A DNA stretch of 64,000 nt from a virus (taxonomy: Duplodnaviria > Caudoviricetes): positions 352,001-416,000 of IMG/VR virus record IMGVR_UViG_3300049988_000286; one strand, written 5' to 3'. The notes beneath the pieces were generated by a model. That model was not told the DNA's origin and did no database searches. It saw nothing but the letters and a program-made list of their open reading frames with translations. This document shows positions 25,521 through 52,909 of the stretch, piece after piece. Position numbers and translations under genes: made by a program. Numbering within the stretch: the first letter of the stretch is position 1; every line of letters starts with the position of its first letter.

Positions 25521-26051
25521 ATGAAGAAGATCAAGACTGTGTTCGCCATTGATCGTGCCACGCATCGCGCTACCGACGAGGTGATCGCGCAGTGGGTCAT
25601 GGATGGCGAGGGGGTGGCGACTATCAAGGTCGATGGCACATCCTGCGCAATCCGGGGTGGAAAGCTGTTTCGTCGCTACGATGCGAAGAACGGCAAGACG
25701 CCGCCGGAGGGCTGGGAGCCCTGTGAAGCCGCTCCCGATCCCCATACCGGCCATTGGCCGGGATGGCTGCCTGTCGAGGGTGACCCGGCGGGCAAGTACC
25801 ACCGGGAGGCGTTTGACGCCCTACTCCCCGATGGCACTTACGAGCTTGTCGGCCCCAAGGTTCAAGGAAACCGATACGGGCTCGACCGTCACGAACTTCG
25901 CCCGCATGGCGCGCAGATCGTAGAGGTTGCGAGGACTCGTGAGGCTCTCCTTGATTGGCTCACGAGCCATGAAGAGGAGGGACTGGTCTTTCACCGCGCA
26001 AATGGTGACATGGCCAAGCTTCGGCGCAAGGACTTCGGTCTGCGCTGGTGA
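25521..26051 (+). CDS. DUF5565 / RNA-ligase-like nucleotidyltransferase
   Basis: TIKVDGT (KxDG), GTYELVGPKVQGN, EGLVF and AKLRRKDF motifs. Confidence 0.75.
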   Translation: MKKIKTVFAIDRATHRATDEVIAQWVMDGEGVATIKVDGTSCAIRGGKLFRRYDAKNGKTPPEGWEPCEAAPDPHTGHWPGWLPVEGDPAGKYHREAFDALLPDGTYELVGPKVQGNRYGLDRHELRPHGAQIVEVARTREALLDWLTSHEEEGLVFHRANGDMAKLRRKDFGLRW

Positions 26052-27981: not shown

Positions 27982-30717
27982 ATGGTTGATTATCGCCCCA
28001 CCGTGACTGTTCCGAAGACGCCGCTGCCCACGAAGGCGCGGATCGCCGATGAGCCTCGTCAGGTCGAGGCGTGGGCGGGTCTCCATGATCGCCTCGCTGC
28101 GAAGAACGAGGGTCGCCCAACTTACCTCCTCCACGACGGCCCCCCGTACGCGAACGGCAACATCCACATGGGGCACGCGCTCAACAAGGTGCTCAAGGAC
28201 GTGATCTGCCGGGGGCAGCGCGCTCTCGGCTTCGATGCTCGTCTGCACGCGGGGTGGGACTGTCGTGGTCTTCCAATCGAGTGGAAGGTCGAAGAGGATT
28301 GGCGCAAGCAGAAGCGTGACAAGAATGCCGAGCCGGAAGCATTTCGGCAGGATTGCCGCGACTATGCGGCACGGTGGGTGGATGTCCAGAAGGAGCAGTT
28401 CAAGCGGCTGGGGATCGTCGCCGACTGGGAGTCCGCGCCCTACGGTCATGGTTACCGCACGATGTCGCCCGAGATGTCGAGCCTGATCGTTTACCGCTTT
28501 CACCGCATGGTGGAGCGCGGCGATGTGTATTCGGCCAAGAAGCCGGTGTTGTGGAGTCATGTCGAGCGCACCGCTATGGCGGAGGCGGAGACCGTGGATC
28601 GCGAGCATCAGGTCGAACAGGCGTGGGTGACCTTCCGGATGTTCGCAGGGCCGCTCAAGGGCGACGATCTCCTTGTCTGGACCACCACGCCTTGGAGCCT
28701 TCCGAGCAATGTCGCGGTCGCGTACAACCCTGACATCGCCTACGGGCTTTACGAACAGCGCGGACGCCGGTTCGTGGTTGCCGACAGTTGTGTGGAACGC
28801 GCGCTGCAAAATGATTATCAGCGCCTCCGCGACATCGATCCGAAGACGGACTTCCCGCGCCATGCAGAGCATCCCCTGAACGATCTCGGCTACCCGGTTG
28901 GTGAGGACTGCGTGTCGCGGATCATGCCGGCATCCTTCGTCCGCGACAGTGCGGGAACGGGTCTTGTCCATGTCGCCCCCAGTCATTCCCGTGATGACTG
29001 GGAGGCTTGGAAGGCGCTCGATCACACGTTGACCTTCCCGACGACGATCAACGAGGATGGGCGCTACCACGACAGCCTTCCGCTGTTCGGCGGCACGGCG
29101 GTGGTCAAGGGCAAACGCCTCGGTCCCGCGAACGAGATGGTGCTCGATGCCATGGCGGAGCGTGGTACGCTCTACCGGCGCGAGACTGCTCCCCTGACCT
29201 TGCAGCACTCTTGGCGCAGCGACGCGGTTCTCCTCACGCTCGCCACTGATCAGTGGTTCATCCGCGTCACCGGGGAGGGCGGCGTGGTTGAACGTGTGCT
29301 TGCGGGATTGGCGGAGGTTGAGTTCTCCCCATCCAGCGGCGGCACGCGCATGGCCTCGATGCTGCGCGATCGTCCCGATTGGCTGGTGTCTCGTCAGCGC
29401 CTGTGGGGCACCCCCATGGCCATCTTGGCGCATCGTCGCACCGGCGAGCCCTGCCGTGATCCGGCCGTCTTGGGAGCGATCCATCAAGAGTTGATGGATC
29501 GTGGGGCGGATGCGTGGTGGAGCGAGTTCTCGGTTGAGGACATGTTCGCAGCGATCGGTCGCCCCGACGAGGCCAAGGACTGGCGGCGCGTCGATGACGT
29601 GCTCGATGTCTGGTTCGATTCTGCGTGTGTGCACGCCATCACTGGTGAGCGTGCCGATCTTGTCGTCGAGGGGAGTGATCAGAGCCGTGGCTGGTTCCAG
29701 AGCAGCGCTCTCGAAGGCATGGCCAACGATGGCGTGCTCCCGTACCGGGAAGTGCTCACCCACGGTTTCGTCCTTGACGGATCGGGGCGCAAGATGTCGA
29801 AGTCGGAGGGGAACGTCATTGATCCCATGACGGTGGTAGATCGTCTTGGCGCGGATGCGGTTCGTGTCTGGGTAGCTGCCACCGACGTTCGCGAAGACCT
29901 TCGTGTCAGTGATGCGGTGTTAGCCACCCATGCCGAGACGGTTCGCAAGGTCCGTATCACGCTTCGCTACCTCGTCGCGGCGCTGGCGGGTGTTACCGTT
30001 ACGCACGATCGGGTGATCGTCGATCCCCTCAACCGCTATGTGCTCAATCGTGTCGCGCATACCAGTGACGCGTTGTTCGCCATGCTGGCGGAGAAGGACT
30101 TCACCCGCTACGTGGCGACGATCGCGAATTTCTGCGCCAATGATCTCTCCGCCCTGCTGTTCGATGCCCGCAAGGACATCCTCTACTGCGACGGGCCGAG
30201 TGCGCGACGGGATGATTATCTCGCAACGCTCTCGGAGGTGTTTGAGCATCTGGTTCGCTGGGCGGCTCCCGTGATGGTTTTCGCGGCGGAGGAGATGTGG
30301 CAAGCCCTCCATCCAGAATCGAGCGTGCACGAGCAAGACTGGCTCCATCCCCACTGGTTGTGGAACGACGAGCGGTTGATGGAACGGTGGGCGAAGGTGC
30401 TCGATTATCGCTCGGAGATGTTGGGCAAGATTGAGGAAGTGCGTGCGGCGGGTGCGGTGAAGTCTAGCCTTGAATGCCATCTCACTGTCTTCGCCGATCC
30501 AGCGGCACGCCAGCACATGCTTGGGATCGATATGGCGGAACTCACCCTCACGGCTGGGGTGGATATCCGCTCCTTGGAGGGGCGCTTTACCGCACCGACC
30601 AACACTGTGGTGGAGCGTGTCACCACGCCGCGCTGTGACCGGTGCTGGCGGCACGTCGAGGTCGAGGCTGTCGAGGACTCGCATCTCTGTGATCGGTGCG
30701 CGGAGGTTGTGGCGTGA
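27982..30717 (+). CDS. ileS: isoleucyl-tRNA synthetase, type 1
   Basis: PYANGNIHMGH, WTTTPW and GTGLVH editing motifs, SRQR, KMSKS, C-terminal CDRC..CDRC zinc finger. Confidence 0.95.
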   Translation: MVDYRPTVTVPKTPLPTKARIADEPRQVEAWAGLHDRLAAKNEGRPTYLLHDGPPYANGNIHMGHALNKVLKDVICRGQRALGFDARLHAGWDCRGLPIEWKVEEDWRKQKRDKNAEPEAFRQDCRDYAARWVDVQKEQFKRLGIVADWESAPYGHGYRTMSPEMSSLIVYRFHRMVERGDVYSAKKPVLWSHVERTAMAEAETVDREHQVEQAWVTFRMFAGPLKGDDLLVWTTTPWSLPSNVAVAYNPDIAYGLYEQRGRRFVVADSCVERALQNDYQRLRDIDPKTDFPRHAEHPLNDLGYPVGEDCVSRIMPASFVRDSAGTGLVHVAPSHSRDDWEAWKALDHTLTFPTTINEDGRYHDSLPLFGGTAVVKGKRLGPANEMVLDAMAERGTLYRRETAPLTLQHSWRSDAVLLTLATDQWFIRVTGEGGVVERVLAGLAEVEFSPSSGGTRMASMLRDRPDWLVSRQRLWGTPMAILAHRRTGEPCRDPAVLGAIHQELMDRGADAWWSEFSVEDMFAAIGRPDEAKDWRRVDDVLDVWFDSACVHAITGERADLVVEGSDQSRGWFQSSALEGMANDGVLPYREVLTHGFVLDGSGRKMSKSEGNVIDPMTVVDRLGADAVRVWVAATDVREDLRVSDAVLATHAETVRKVRITLRYLVAALAGVTVTHDRVIVDPLNRYVLNRVAHTSDALFAMLAEKDFTRYVATIANFCANDLSALLFDARKDILYCDGPSARRDDYLATLSEVFEHLVRWAAPVMVFAAEEMWQALHPESSVHEQDWLHPHWLWNDERLMERWAKVLDYRSEMLGKIEEVRAAGAVKSSLECHLTVFADPAARQHMLGIDMAELTLTAGVDIRSLEGRFTAPTNTVVERVTTPRCDRCWRHVEVEAVEDSHLCDRCAEVVA

Positions 30718-41054: not shown

Positions 41055-41149
41055 TGGTACGCCCGGAGGGATTCGAACCCCCAACCGTTCCGCGATCTGC
41101 GGATCATGAGGTATAAGCTCACCGCTCTAACCAATTGAGCTACGGGCGC
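41055..41149 (-). tRNA. tRNA-Ile(UAU) with a long variable region (95 nt)
   Basis: GCGCCCG/CGGGCGT acceptor, canonical D-arm, GTGAG-CTTATAC-CTCAT anticodon arm, 23-nt variable region, TTCGAAT T-loop, CCA. Confidence 0.85.
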
Positions 41150-49954: not shown

Positions 49955-50305
49955 CTATGCCATATTCGGCAAGTTAGGCGCAATCGGGCACCGCGATATC
50001 CTTACCAGAAAGTATCGCGCAGCCACCAAAGCTTTGAGCCGAACCTTGATCGGGACATCCGTCTTCTTGGCGACGCGGAGGCATCGAGCCACGAAATGAA
50101 TATCGGCGATATGTTGGCGACGACGCTTGTCCGCTGCATCGCCGCGATAACTCTTGTCATACTCGCAGTCATGCTTGAAGCACGCTTTGTCGAGTTCATC
50201 GATGGGAGCGCCGCCGCAATTACCCGGCCCGCAATAGTTGCCATGGAAGCGGATGAAGCGCTTCGTTGGTGCTAATGGGGCTTCGAACAGATGGCGGCTG
50301 CGCAT
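49955..50305 (-). CDS. phospholipase A2-like late protein with internal-protein-like N-terminus
   Basis: MRSRHLFEA start; YCGPGN Ca-loop, DKACFKHDCEY (HD) and ADIHF motifs. Confidence 0.8.
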   Translation of the reverse strand: MRSRHLFEAPLAPTKRFIRFHGNYCGPGNCGGAPIDELDKACFKHDCEYDKSYRGDAADKRRRQHIADIHFVARCLRVAKKTDVPIKVRLKALVAARYFLVRISRCPIAPNLPNMA

Positions 50306-50315: not shown

Positions 50316-50413
50316 CACTGGCTTGACGGAGTTTGCACCGCAAGGTGTTGGCGTACCGTGGCACCCAGATCGTCGTGAAGAGACCTCCTCTTACCGGAGC
50401 CGACGATCAACCA

Positions 50414-50590
50414 TTACATTTCGTATAGGACTACCGTCCAATCTCGATCATCGAAGTGGTAGCGGCGGTAGTGGACTTGTCCGAAGAGTCCATCGATCCC
50501 GTCGATGTAATCACCGCTATTGGGAACGGTGGGCATGTCGCGCTCACCAAGTATGCGATTGTCGGCATCGCGGAAGATGACGCGGTTCAA
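50414..50590 (-). CDS. 58-aa protein coupled to rpsU (not in the supplied ORF track)
   Basis: TTG start overlaps the rpsU TGA; MNRVIFRDADNRILG... Confidence 0.55.
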   Translation of the reverse strand: MNRVIFRDADNRILGERDMPTVPNSGDYIDGIDGLFGQVHYRRYHFDDRDWTVVLYEM

Positions 50591-50787
50591 CGATCGCGTT
50601 CCGCTCGCTGACGATCGGCTTTCCTCGATCGCTTGACCGCAGCGGCGCGAGCCTTGGCCTTAACTTCGCTGGGCTTCATGTAGTGGGCGCGCTGTTTCAT
50701 TTCACGCAGGATGCCCTCGCGCTGCATCTTGCGCTTCAAGACCTTCAAGGCCTTGTCCATATTCCCGTCCTGAACCGCTACCCGCAT
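50587..50787 (-). CDS. rpsU: ribosomal protein bS21
   Basis: DKALKVLKRKMQREGILREMKQRAHYMKPSE matches alphaproteobacterial bS21; AAGGA SD. Confidence 0.9.
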   Translation of the reverse strand: MRVAVQDGNMDKALKVLKRKMQREGILREMKQRAHYMKPSEVKAKARAAAVKRSRKADRQRAERDR

Positions 50788-50844
50788 TGTGTGATCCTTT
50801 CGGAGACGGGCTAGCTGGGAGTTCGGACGAGGGCAAGAGGGAAG

Positions 50845-50920
50845 TGGAGCCCGAGGTCGGGATTGAACCGACGACCTGTCCCTTACGAGGGGACTGCAAC
50901 TACCACTGTGCTACTCGGGC
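50845..50920 (-). tRNA. tRNA-Thr(CGU)
   Basis: GTCCC-CTCGTAA-GGGAC anticodon arm, TTCAAT T-loop, CCA. Confidence 0.9.
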
Positions 50921-50969
50921 GTGTGAAGGGTTGACAGGGGCTATGCCCCTAGAAGAAAAAATCGGTGAC

Positions 50970-51045
50970 TGGCAGGAGCGCCGAGACTCGAACTCGGAAC
51001 CTACGGGATTGGAAGCCGGTGCTCTACCAATTGAGCTACACTCCT
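50970..51045 (-). tRNA. tRNA-Trp(CCA)
   Basis: A1-U72 and G73 identity elements, TTCCAAT loop; anticodon stem has only 3 pairs. Confidence 0.75.
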
Positions 51046-51052
51046 ACAGTCA

Positions 51053-51126
51053 TGGTTGGCACGGGTGGTAATGCTCCACCGTCTCGGCTTTATCAGAACC
51101 TTGCTCTACTTTTGAGCTACGCGCCA
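51053..51126 (-). tRNA. tRNA-Ile(GAU), atypical elbow
   Basis: CTGATAA loop, T-loop AGCATTA, D-loop AAAAGTA, CCA. Confidence 0.8.
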
Positions 51127-51156
51127 TCAGTGACAGACAACCGGTCTGTCAGCGGG

Positions 51157-51232
51157 TGGTGGTGACGGCTGGGCTCGAACCAGCGACATACGCGTCATCA
51201 ACACGTCGTTCTTCCAACTGAACTACGCCACC
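51157..51232 (-). tRNA. tRNA-Ile(GAU) with G37
   Basis: ACGTG-TTGATGA-CGCGT anticodon arm, canonical D and T arms, CCA. Confidence 0.85.
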
Positions 51233-51237
51233 ACATT

Positions 51238-51525
51238 GAGCGTCGCCCGAGACTCATCGACGATGTGCGCACCGCTCCCGTGGGATGTGCGATCTCGTCG
51301 GGTCGTACGTCGGGCGACGACTCCAAACTATCAATCCGGGGAAGCTGCTTCCAAGCGCGTGCTTCATGTCAAAGAGCCCCTGTGGAGGGCGCTTCGGCAG
51401 ATGTTGCTTGGAGAAGGGGACTTCAGGTGTCCCGAACCTCAACCAATACCCGCCTAGAACGGGTATGGCAAACCACCCCGCTCACCCGAAGGTGATCGAC
51501 CAACTAATCGTGGTTGAGGAGGTTG
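51238..51525 (-). ncRNA. candidate multi-domain structured RNA at the head of the tRNA operon
   Basis: Three nested inverted-repeat domains and a cUUCGg tetraloop on the minus strand; no credible ORF. Confidence 0.55.
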
Positions 51526-51540
51526 TCGTGTTCATGCTTT

Positions 51541-51572
51541 TATTTATACCGAAGGGGTCGCCGGGCTGTCAA
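51541..51572 (-). promoter_or_regulatory. overlapping sigma70 (TTGACA...TATAAA) and T4-type late (TATAAATA) promoter
   Basis: TTGACA at 51572-51567; TATAAATA at 51548-51541. Confidence 0.75.
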
Positions 51573-51576
51573 CACC

Positions 51577-51582
51577 TAAATA
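51577..51582 (+). promoter_or_regulatory. late promoter TAAATA
   Basis: 4 nt to ATG 51587. Confidence 0.75.
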
Positions 51583-51586
51583 CAGC

Positions 51587-52909
51587 ATGGCTAGAAAAAT
51601 CACCGACCTTCCGCAGTCTACCCTTTCGGCGACCGATCTCGGTGCTGCCTCCATCCCCGTTTCCAATGTGGGCAGCAACGCCTCGGTGCTGGAACGCGTG
51701 TTGGCGCGCGACTTCATGTCGTTGCTCGGTGGGAGCTATCGCGGCACGTGGAGCGCGTCGCCTTCGCGGCCGTATAACTTCGGCGACATCGTGACTGTCC
51801 TCTCAATCATCACTCCAATCTACTATGTCTGCCTTATCGCGGGCACTACCTCCAATCCCTCTGCGAACACGGGCTGGCAACTGATCAATTCCGTGGTGCG
51901 TGGTACCGATGCTGGACCACCTACAGTCGGGGTAGATGGCCAATTGATCATTCAGGATGGCTTGCTGTATTTCAATAGCAACGGCGCGCGTATTCCGCTG
52001 CTTCGTGGCGACGCCCCGCTATTGTCGAACCAGATCGCGCGTGAGCCGGGGACGATCAACATTCTGGATGATCCAACCTTCGCCAGTGGAAGCACATGGA
52101 CGGTGGTGGGTTTCAATCGGGTGGCGTCAACTAATGACTTCGGTAACGGTTTTGCCTATCAGACTAGCGGCACGGGCAGTTTCAGCCTCAAGTCGAAAAT
52201 GACCATCCCTTACACAAGCGGAGAGCAACAGTACGTACGTTATTTTATAACGAAGACCGCTGATTTCGCGGGTACGATCTCGCTCACGTACATAAAGGCT
52301 AATAAAGACGGCAGCAATGCATCAGCGCAGACGGCTGCCACGATCAACCCGACAACGCTTAATACTTTTAGCTTCGGGCTAGATACTAACTTTTCCAACT
52401 TTGGAAGTGGTAACATTACTGCTTTCGGTGTAGAGGCGACGGTTACGGCAGGATCGATCACCGTATTGAGGCTAGAATATTACAAACCTCTAAATCTCCG
52501 GTATCTACCTACGACGACATCCACGTCGGTGTTCTACTACGGTAACAGCACTTTGCTTACGCCACCGGACACGCTGATCAACGCCAGTAAACCCACTGAT
52601 ATGGGTAGTCTTTCTGGCAACATCACGCTCAACTTCTATGCCTATCGAAGTGCAAATTTCACGCTCACTGGCAACAGCACATTGGTCAATCCATCTGGCG
52701 TCGCGTTCTCCGGTTTCGGTGGACGCATCCGCATTACTCAAGACCCTGCTAACTCTGGCGCGCCTTACACTCTAGCCTATGGGTCGGCGTGGAAGTTTCC
52801 CGGCGGCGCGCCGACGCTCTCTACGACACCGGGGGCGGTTGATCTCTTGGTCTATTTCGTCAACACCGACCTGACCTTTGAGTGCACGCTCGTCAAGGAT
52901 GTGAAGTAA
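51587..52909 (+). CDS. tail fibre / receptor-binding-type structural protein
   Basis: ARKITDLP N-terminus; C-terminal FTLTGNSTLVNP...ITQD...WKFPGG.PTLSTTPGAVDLL module. Confidence 0.75.
   Translation: MARKITDLPQSTLSATDLGAASIPVSNVGSNASVLERVLARDFMSLLGGSYRGTWSASPSRPYNFGDIVTVLSIITPIYYVCLIAGTTSNPSANTGWQLINSVVRGTDAGPPTVGVDGQLIIQDGLLYFNSNGARIPLLRGDAPLLSNQIAREPGTINILDDPTFASGSTWTVVGFNRVASTNDFGNGFAYQTSGTGSFSLKSKMTIPYTSGEQQYVRYFITKTADFAGTISLTYIKANKDGSNASAQTAATINPTTLNTFSFGLDTNFSNFGSGNITAFGVEATVTAGSITVLRLEYYKPLNLRYLPTTTSTSVFYYGNSTLLTPPDTLINASKPTDMGSLSGNITLNFYAYRSANFTLTGNSTLVNPSGVAFSGFGGRIRITQDPANSGAPYTLAYGSAWKFPGGAPTLSTTPGAVDLLVYFVNTDLTFECTLVKDVK

Follow-up and report, generated by a model that had tools for sequence, protein, structure and literature searches.

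A candidate ribosome-read leader ahead of an Ile/Trp/Thr tRNA operon in a large phage genome

Leaders such as thrL (rich in Thr and Ile codons), ilvL, and trpL control biosynthetic enzymes through a short open reading frame (ORF) that lies right after the promoter and is enriched in the codons to be sensed; its stop codon stands beside two mutually exclusive hairpins, and the position of the ribosome sets which of them folds. T-box riboswitches, which are about 300 nucleotides long and consist of several stem domains, tune translation-related genes to the status of transfer RNA (tRNA) via alternative folds, and they bind uncharged tRNA directly, without an ORF. Phage tRNA genes are usually viewed as constitutive, either as helpers in codon usage or as substitutes for host tRNAs that defense nucleases have cleaved, and a search of the full-text literature found no description of leader peptides or attenuators linked to them. 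Here we analyze a 303-nucleotide leader (51535 to 51233, minus strand) at the head of a row of tRNA genes in a 64,000-nucleotide window, positions 352001 to 416000 of a 499,572-bp IMG/VR virus record (IMGVR_UViG_3300049988_000286; 57% G+C). We hold, with moderate confidence, that these nucleotides form the 5' leader of a phage tRNA operon and that ribosomes reading it sense the speed of decoding; the output of these tRNAs is probably set by how slowly ribosomes get through the matching codons.

The leader shares with thrL, ilvL, and trpL a short ORF right after the promoter that is enriched in the codons presumed to be sensed, here in a multivalent form, and a stop codon beside two mutually exclusive hairpins. 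The distance of its Trp codon from the stop, five codons, resembles that of the regulatory codons in trpL. It differs in that it controls tRNAs rather than biosynthetic enzymes, so that the feedback would act on the very molecules that it reads, and in that its ORF is predicted to be leaderless, no U-tract terminator follows, and the element is encoded by a phage. It is also about twice as long and has two additional conserved domains. None of the known leader families matches it: in a cmscan of 51100 to 51650 against all 4227 Rfam families (E <= 10), the models Thr_leader, Trp_leader, His_leader, Leu_leader, and T-box gave no match in the leader, where the only match was a chance-level one to the Pseudomonas small RNA P9 (14 bits against a gathering threshold of 43). 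The leader is like T-box riboswitches in its length, its several stem domains, its link to translation-related genes, and its alternative folds of the terminator and antiterminator type, but besides lacking a match to the T-box model it has only a GGGUGG-like stretch that is not conserved in either of its two orthologues, L020 and L026 (see below). On balance, the leader is best described as a form of leader-peptide attenuation applied to tRNA genes.

The sequence-only reading of this stretch had seen no convincing ORF. An ORF of 17 codons and a TGA stop, MNTTTSSTTISWSITFG, does begin at 51535 and ends at 51482, on the minus strand like all elements of the leader. It stands at the very start of the predicted transcript and upstream of the tRNA genes. 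A sigma70-like promoter read from the sequence (51542 to 51572) has TTGACA at 51572 to 51567, an 18-nucleotide spacer, and TATAAAT at 51548 to 51542. The start codon lies 6 nucleotides past TAAAT and has no Shine-Dalgarno sequence, and the messenger RNA is therefore predicted to be leaderless. After the Met-Asn-Thr start, 12 of the 14 codons specify Thr, Ser, Ile, or Trp (P = 1e-5 against mononucleotide shuffles and 5e-5 against dinucleotide shuffles); the other two frames contain 2 of 13 and 0 of 13 such codons. Downstream of the leader, tRNA genes called with ARAGORN and Rfam carry the same four amino acids (Ile twice, Trp, and Thr, then Thr and Ser three times), and the ORF codons ACG, ACC, AUU, AUC, UGG, UCC, UCA, UCG, and AGU, drawn from several isoacceptor families, can be read by their anticodons. 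The ORF is thus enriched in codons cognate to the tRNAs that the operon supplies. The order of transcription is promoter, leader, tRNA-Ile(GAU), a second Ile(GAU)-like tRNA, tRNA-Trp(CCA), tRNA-Thr(CGU), a bS21 gene, several ORFs, tRNA-Thr(GGU), and three tRNA-Ser genes.

The same design recurs at other tRNA clusters of this genome. The leader peptides are MNTNTTFVAGRGVVANRANRG at the Met/Gly/Val/Arg/Asn/Ala cluster, MNTQSHHTYYHYHA at the Tyr/His cluster, MNTTYTLMERERSIG at the Glu cluster, ...RKRKRL at the Lys cluster, ...QRQQR at the Gln cluster, ...LPLLPLLPLPLL... at the Pro/Leu cluster, and MHQLI, with AUA as its last codon, at the Ile(UAU) cluster. When eight leader ORFs were assigned to eight clusters in all 40,320 permutations, the true assignment scored best (P = 2.5e-5). 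The promoter type and the Met-Asn-Thr start of the Ile/Trp/Thr leader are common to three other leaders, those of the Gly/Arg/Val/Asn/Ala, Glu, and Tyr/His clusters, and in these paralogous leaders the ORF is likewise codon matched and is followed by hairpins of the same alternating type after its stop. The promoter together with the first 10 nucleotides of the transcript is found again at two other tRNA clusters. Among the leaders of tRNA clusters, the Ile/Trp/Thr leader is one of the longest, only the 25k and Pro/Leu leaders being longer, and unlike the others it carries two conserved structured modules (modules 2 and 3), including a 30-pair hairpin before the first tRNA.

The 499,572-bp record holds a transfer-messenger RNA (tmRNA) gene and more than 45 tRNA genes, mostly clustered per amino acid. 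The strict pattern TTGAC-N16-19-[TC]ATAA[AT] has just 7 sites in the genome, of which at least 6 precede stable-RNA genes (the tmRNA gene or tRNA clusters), and it appears that the phage reserves consensus-like promoters of the host type for such genes. Six of the sites, at genome positions 15527, 25168, 350240, 400143, 403572, and 453710, lie directly before the tmRNA gene or a tRNA cluster.

Relatives of the leader were sought by scanning metagenome contigs for the promoter and the ORF start, and two of the eight matches proved to be true relatives. L020 can be aligned with the window (64% identity over the leader) and has tRNA-Ile(GAU) and then tRNA-Trp(CCA) behind it; L026 is a short contig with the same ORF start followed by other large structures. 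In L020 the ORF reads MNTNSSITTTISWSSTIR, with 13 of 15 codons from the Thr/Ser/Ile/Trp set and the frame preserved despite a 3-nucleotide indel. In L026 it reads MNTISTISTTSWSSTIS, with 14 of 14. The start, frame, composition, and length (17 to 18 codons) are thus kept in all three, and the Trp codon always stands five codons ahead of the stop. Contigs from four DNA runs provided closer relatives, about 92% identical over the leader, in which the ORF stays open among the differences listed; these include the codon changes Ile to Ser, Phe to Ile, and Gly to Arg, and they were not used for covariation. Beyond these, blastn against 50,697 records of cultured phages found no match to the leader. 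Pattern scans of IMG/VR with the promoter and ORF start, with the ORF start and a conserved AGTTGGTCG, or with a conserved block and the base of module 3 returned only chance matches in unrelated contigs, and a scan of genome contigs returned a single AT-rich chance match in a Methanobrevibacter metagenome-assembled genome. Among the public runs checked for the stretch, no RNA run was listed as carrying the leader.

The sequence-only reading had described a structured RNA of three consecutive stem-closed modules with a linker hairpin, heading the tRNA operon just past a strong promoter, and in this it was right: each of its helices is present on the minus strand, and the structure is conserved, if unevenly. 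For the 303-nucleotide leader the predicted folding energy is -122.3 kcal/mol, whereas its 100 dinucleotide shuffles give -105.9 +/- 5.0 (z -3.3; 0 of 100 as stable), and the orthologous leaders fold more strongly still (z -6.9 for L020 and -9.2 for L026). The collection of homologues that it had proposed yielded the two orthologues, and for the window and L020 the RNAalifold consensus has 71 pairs, of which 13 are compensatory, with changes on both sides. These changes maintain module 3, the linker hairpin, the GCCCU hairpin of module 2, and the hairpin at the stop codon. A better reading, we propose, makes module 1 and part of module 2 components of a translated regulatory leader and module 3 a pre-tRNA hairpin.

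The helices around the stop codon are those expected of a ribosome-read switch in the window and in both orthologues. Hairpin S (UCACC-UUCG-GGUGA, 51495 to 51482; -6.6 kcal/mol) holds the last codons and the stop. It is kept in all three orthologues even though the stop changes from UGA to UAA, as UACC/GGUA around UAA in L020 (4 of 5 pairs kept relative to the window, 1 compensatory) and as CAACU/AGUUG around UGA in L026. The 5' strand of hairpin A, which we regard as anti-B or antiterminator-like (51483 to 51457; 11 pairs, -15.7 kcal/mol), begins within the stop codon; in L020, 8 of its pairs are unchanged and 2 are kept through one-sided changes. Hairpin B (51469 to 51442; 12 pairs, -14.3 kcal/mol) contains AUACCCG/CGGGUAU and is followed by UUGAGGUU. 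Since A and B share a strand (3' in A, 5' in B), the two are mutually exclusive, and A lies within reach of a ribosome at the stop. Equivalent hairpins are found in both orthologues, where the predicted energies of A and B are -15.6 and -16.9 kcal/mol in L020 and -16.0 and -22.1 kcal/mol in L026; they are close also in the paralogous Glu leader. The folding model thus gives nearly isoenergetic alternatives at the stop codon in all three orthologues.

The leader was also folded with a ribosome footprint imposed at set positions of the ORF. For the full-length leader, the minimum-free-energy (MFE) fold contains A without a ribosome or with a stalled one and changes to B once the ribosome occupies the stop; B is present in every fold with a footprint over the stop codon. 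For L020 and the Glu leader, a footprint six codons before the stop gives A and one at the stop gives B. In alignment, hairpin B and the tail after it coincide with a terminator-like hairpin in the Glu leader that has a tail richer in U.

Downstream of B, the linker hairpin C (51411 to 51440; 9 pairs, with the core GGGAC/GUCCC at 51433 to 51417) is fully kept in L020 (9 of 9 pairs kept, 2 compensatory, and none broken) and has a counterpart in the same position in L026. When A forms, the 3' strand of B is released and can pair 30 to 50 nucleotides downstream as relay helix P (51395 to 51454): this strand and the bases after it (about 51454 to 51436) pair with about 51414 to 51395, enclosing hairpin C. 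Helix P is part of the full-length MFE fold both without a ribosome and with a stalled one, and its duplex energy is -18.2 kcal/mol in the window, -20.4 in L020, and -13.1 in L026. Because helix P occupies the 5' strand of the stem that closes module 2, the choice between A and B would be relayed into that module. The stem that closes module 1 (51519 to 51511 with 51445 to 51437) forms all 9 of its pairs and uses ORF codons 6 to 9 as its 5' strand, but it is the least supported helix, with 7 of 9 pairs in L020 and no compensatory change; its duplex energy falls from -15.2 kcal/mol in the window to -11.8 in L020 and to -6.8 in L026, where only a weak duplex of the ORF with the bases after B can form. 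In folds without a ribosome, this stem and hairpin B form together, a combination that resembles the state of classical attenuators when they are not translated.

The following mechanism would be consistent with these structures. Host RNA polymerase would start at or next to the AUG at 51535, to judge by the promoter spacing, and ribosomes would translate the leaderless 17-codon ORF, which consists almost entirely of Thr, Ser, Ile, and Trp codons. When decoding is slow, a ribosome pausing at codons 4 to 13 would let hairpin A fold behind it, and helix P would take up the 3' strand of B, giving the read-through form. When decoding is fast, the ribosome would get to the last codons or the stop and melt hairpin S; by covering the 5' strand of A at the stop, it would allow B to form and module 2 to close, giving the attenuated form. 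The most likely output is weak intrinsic termination or pausing after B, and altered processing or Rho access seems less likely.

Several observations weigh against this proposal. We found no canonical intrinsic terminator in the leader and no terminator-like site in 50400 to 51800. Hairpin B lacks the U-tract that follows the G+C-rich stem of an intrinsic terminator; it is followed by UUGAGGUU in the window and, similarly purine rich, by UUGAAGG and UUAGAAG in the orthologues. Canonical terminators do occur elsewhere in this genome, for example, in the Pro/Leu leader, and the Glu leader has a terminator-like one; none is recognizable in the Ile/Trp/Thr leader, and most tRNA clusters of the genome are not followed by a canonical terminator. 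When just the first 125 nucleotides of the window leader are folded, every ribosome state gives B, and A is favored only at full length, which implies that the switch depends partly on the order of folding. About 180 nucleotides (modules 2 and 3) are conserved beyond what a classical attenuator needs, and the covariation is statistically weak, with only three orthologues. The ORF codon ACA (Thr) has no cognate among the phage tRNAs detected. In the DNA known for L020, the tRNAs that follow the leader are limited to Ile and Trp, and in L026 no canonical tRNA lies within 440 nucleotides, although both ORFs are rich in Thr and Ser. Finally, the start of transcription, the translation of the ORF, and the regulation itself are predictions made from sequence.

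The conservation of modules 2 and 3 raises another possibility, namely, that these modules or the whole leader are cut out by RNase P, together with RNase E or RNase III, and persist as one or more stable noncoding RNAs with their own function, perhaps as decoys or protein sponges or in a Y-RNA-like partnership. The tRNA cluster of phage T4 holds stable RNAs of unknown function and offers a comparison. As in textbook tRNA maturation, cleavage by RNase P at tRNA-Ile must free the leader as a separate molecule, and its folds are very stable (z -3.3 to -9.2 across the three orthologues). The structure of the two modules is kept with compensatory changes between the window and L020. Module 2 (51340 to 51411) comprises a closing stem of 6 contiguous pairs (51411 to 51406 with 51356 to 51351; 4 of 6 kept in L020, 1 compensatory), hairpin T2 with the GCCCU/GGGGC pairing (51396 to 51370; 10 pairs, 8 kept and 1 compensatory), and a small hairpin D (51352 to 51340) that competes with the closing stem. 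An invariant CUCUUUGACAUG follows T2. RNAalifold gives an alternative here, in which the bases after the invariant block pair with D on its 3' side and 3 of the pairs are compensatory. Two other elements were considered in module 2 and rejected: an internal promoter at its TTGACA, which has no -10 element at a usable distance, and a second ORF at a conserved GACAUG, whose peptide and frame differ between the window and L020.

A free-standing RNA of this kind seems unlikely to us all the same, whether taken as one novel RNA or as three tRNA-sized RNAs acting as decoys or Y-RNA-like molecules, as the sequence-only reading had suggested. The stretch has neither a separate promoter nor a separate terminator, a conserved and codon-matched ORF under a constraint on composition takes up its 5' third, and module 2 is strongly different in L026. 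Rfam, including its YrlA, tRNA, and tmRNA families, has no match to it; at the gathering threshold, Rfam reports only tRNAs in the window. As for a tRNA or tRNA-like RNA, ARAGORN and the Rfam tRNA model (RF00005) give nothing inside 51238 to 51525. Bacterial Y RNAs such as YrlA resemble the leader as structured RNAs closed by long stems in the neighborhood of phage tRNA genes, but the YrlA model (RF02553) does not match the leader, its nearest match in the genome (403101 to 403190) overlapping tRNA genes and scoring 19 bits against a gathering threshold of 69, and the 499,572-bp record contains no Ro60/TROVE gene. The leader has no conserved T-arm either. The earlier remark that it has no TTC T-loop does not hold to the letter, since the loop of the AUACCCG hairpin is UUCUAGG, but no T-arm surrounds this loop and the orthologues do not conserve it. 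L026 also speaks for a stable RNA, as it has more large clamped structures after the same ORF. One of these (L026, 1340 to 1480, plus strand) is a structure of about 140 nucleotides in which a clamp of 23 pairs encloses four hairpins; it includes a T-arm-like arm with the loop UUCGAUU, and a second TTGACA/TATAAAT promoter follows the structure. It has no match to YrlA in Rfam at E <= 0.1 and may be a permuted tRNA-like RNA.

Equally improbable, in our estimate, is a passive role in processing or stability, in which the hairpins guide RNase III, RNase E, or RNase P or protect the precursor, and the ORF is either untranslated or matched in its codons for reasons other than regulation. In its favor is module 3, an irregular hairpin of 30 pairs (51323 to 51238) that ends 5 nucleotides before the 5' end of tRNA-Ile(GAU), the RNase P site (4 nucleotides in L020). 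Its predicted energy is -46.0 kcal/mol in the window and -43.3 kcal/mol in L020, and it forms in every predicted state. We treat it as constitutive because its only competitors are helices of 5 to 7 pairs, mostly rich in G-U. In L020, 21 of the 30 pairs are kept (15 unchanged, 2 with one-sided changes, and 4 compensatory) and the 9 broken ones lie in an unalignable tip; the basal 10 pairs are all kept, with 1 compensatory and 1 one-sided change. RNase III sites exist in rRNA and in phage T7 early transcripts, and module 3 resembles these hairpins in being long (more than two helical turns), irregular, and situated beside a stable-RNA gene. The most likely role of module 3 would be to keep the translated leader apart from the first tRNA, as an insulating hairpin or one for processing of the RNase III type. 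A block without pairing in the folds, GGAUUGAUAG (51328 to 51337), stands between module 2 and module 3. The window and L020 have it in identical form, and no other segment of the alignment reaches the 81% identity of the 16 columns around it; the block could be an RNase E site. The missing canonical terminator and the presence of B in all ribosome states in the short window construct would also suit a passive leader. What such a leader would not lead one to expect is the composition of the ORF (P <= 5e-5), the preservation of its frame at 64% identity, the match of leaders to clusters (P = 2.5e-5), or a pair of mutually exclusive hairpins that abut the stop codon in all three orthologues.

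Least likely of the three alternatives is that the same sensor works through Rho-dependent attenuation. In its 5' half the ORF is rich in C and poor in G (bases 4 to 30 have about 12 C and 2 G, the orthologues being similar), and this half would be a Rho loading site that a stalled ribosome masks, as in the tna operon, and a released one exposes, the long structured leader letting Rho catch the polymerase. The lack of a canonical intrinsic terminator and the regulatory sign would fit, but such a loading site would be a short one, comparable leaders at other clusters are G rich (e.g., Gly/Arg/Val/Ala), so that the mechanism would not be general, and the conserved A/B alternation is left unexplained.

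Returning to a ribosome-read sensor, we see about even chances that the scheme extends to giant phages, which would gate each tRNA operon by a leaderless "test" ORF written in the codons of its own tRNAs; this ribosome-sensed feedback would be relayed here through A and B, helix P, and module 2, with regulated processing or noncanonical termination of a tRNA precursor as a possible output of a new kind. If this is true, the phage gauges how fast codons are decoded and produces the matching tRNAs as they are needed, which is the logic of attenuation applied to tRNA genes themselves, and the supply of tRNA could answer depletion of host tRNAs, for example, by anticodon nucleases. The Ile/Trp/Thr leader is a useful case in that it is multivalent (Thr, Ser, Ile, and Trp) and its diverged orthologues reveal which helices are under selection; without a canonical terminator, it may also show how a signal is relayed where simple termination is not the output. 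It would be a compact part, of about 300 nucleotides, for sensing tRNA supply.

The leader lies between the tRNA genes and a divergent gene for a 440-amino-acid protein (51587 to 52909) that matches no known family; for a tail-fiber-like neighbor protein, only relatives of the C-terminal domain were retrieved, without synteny. The genes of the operon, all on the minus strand, are tRNA-Ile(GAU) at 51232 to 51157, the second Ile(GAU)-like tRNA at 51126 to 51056 (Rfam, 45.5 bits; missed by standard ARAGORN), tRNA-Trp(CCA) at 51045 to 50970, which is the sole tRNA-Trp of the phage, and tRNA-Thr(CGU) at 50920 to 50845. Directly behind the last of these, at 50787 to 50587, is the gene for ribosomal protein bS21 (Pfam Ribosomal_S21, E 3.9e-18), which probably shares the transcription unit with the leader. 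Farther downstream on the same strand are tRNA-Thr(GGU) (48569 to 48495) and the three tRNA-Ser genes (UGA, GGA, and GCU; 48113 to 47820).

Several of these tRNAs are unusual. The second Ile(GAU)-like tRNA has an aberrant T-loop, AGCAUUA, without UUC, and one mismatch in its anticodon stem. The anticodon stem of tRNA-Trp(CCA) has two mismatched pairs (C27-U43 and C31-C39), for which ARAGORN gives an 8-base loop and the label "anticodon tcca"; its acceptor features, A1-U72 and G73, are consistent with a bacterial tRNA-Trp. On the minus strand at 50925 to 50969, AUUUUUUCUUCU directly follows tRNA-Trp and is itself followed by a GGGGC/GCCCC hairpin, and together these may act as a partial stop between tRNA-Trp and tRNA-Thr(CGU). 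Also on the minus strand, 49955 to 50305 encodes a protein of 116 amino acids with a phospholipase A2-like domain (PF08398, E 3.5e-7; motif CFKHDCEYD).

Elsewhere in the genome, tRNA-Val(GAC) at 25982 and tRNA-Ala(GGC) at 29033 have an odd T-loop, GGCAGAA, in common. Two tRNAs with the anticodon CUA (amber suppressors, labeled "Pyl" by ARAGORN) lie outside the window at genome positions 102238 to 102314 (plus strand) and 106351 to 106425 (minus strand), which suggests that TAG may be recoded in part of the phage. Many phage tRNAs that are normally class I are 84 to 95 nucleotides long and apparently have long variable arms (Ile-UAU, 95; Met, Arg, and Cys, 91; Asn, 87 to 89; Gln, 88; Glu, 84 to 85), and an instance inside the window is found at 41055 to 41149 on the minus strand.

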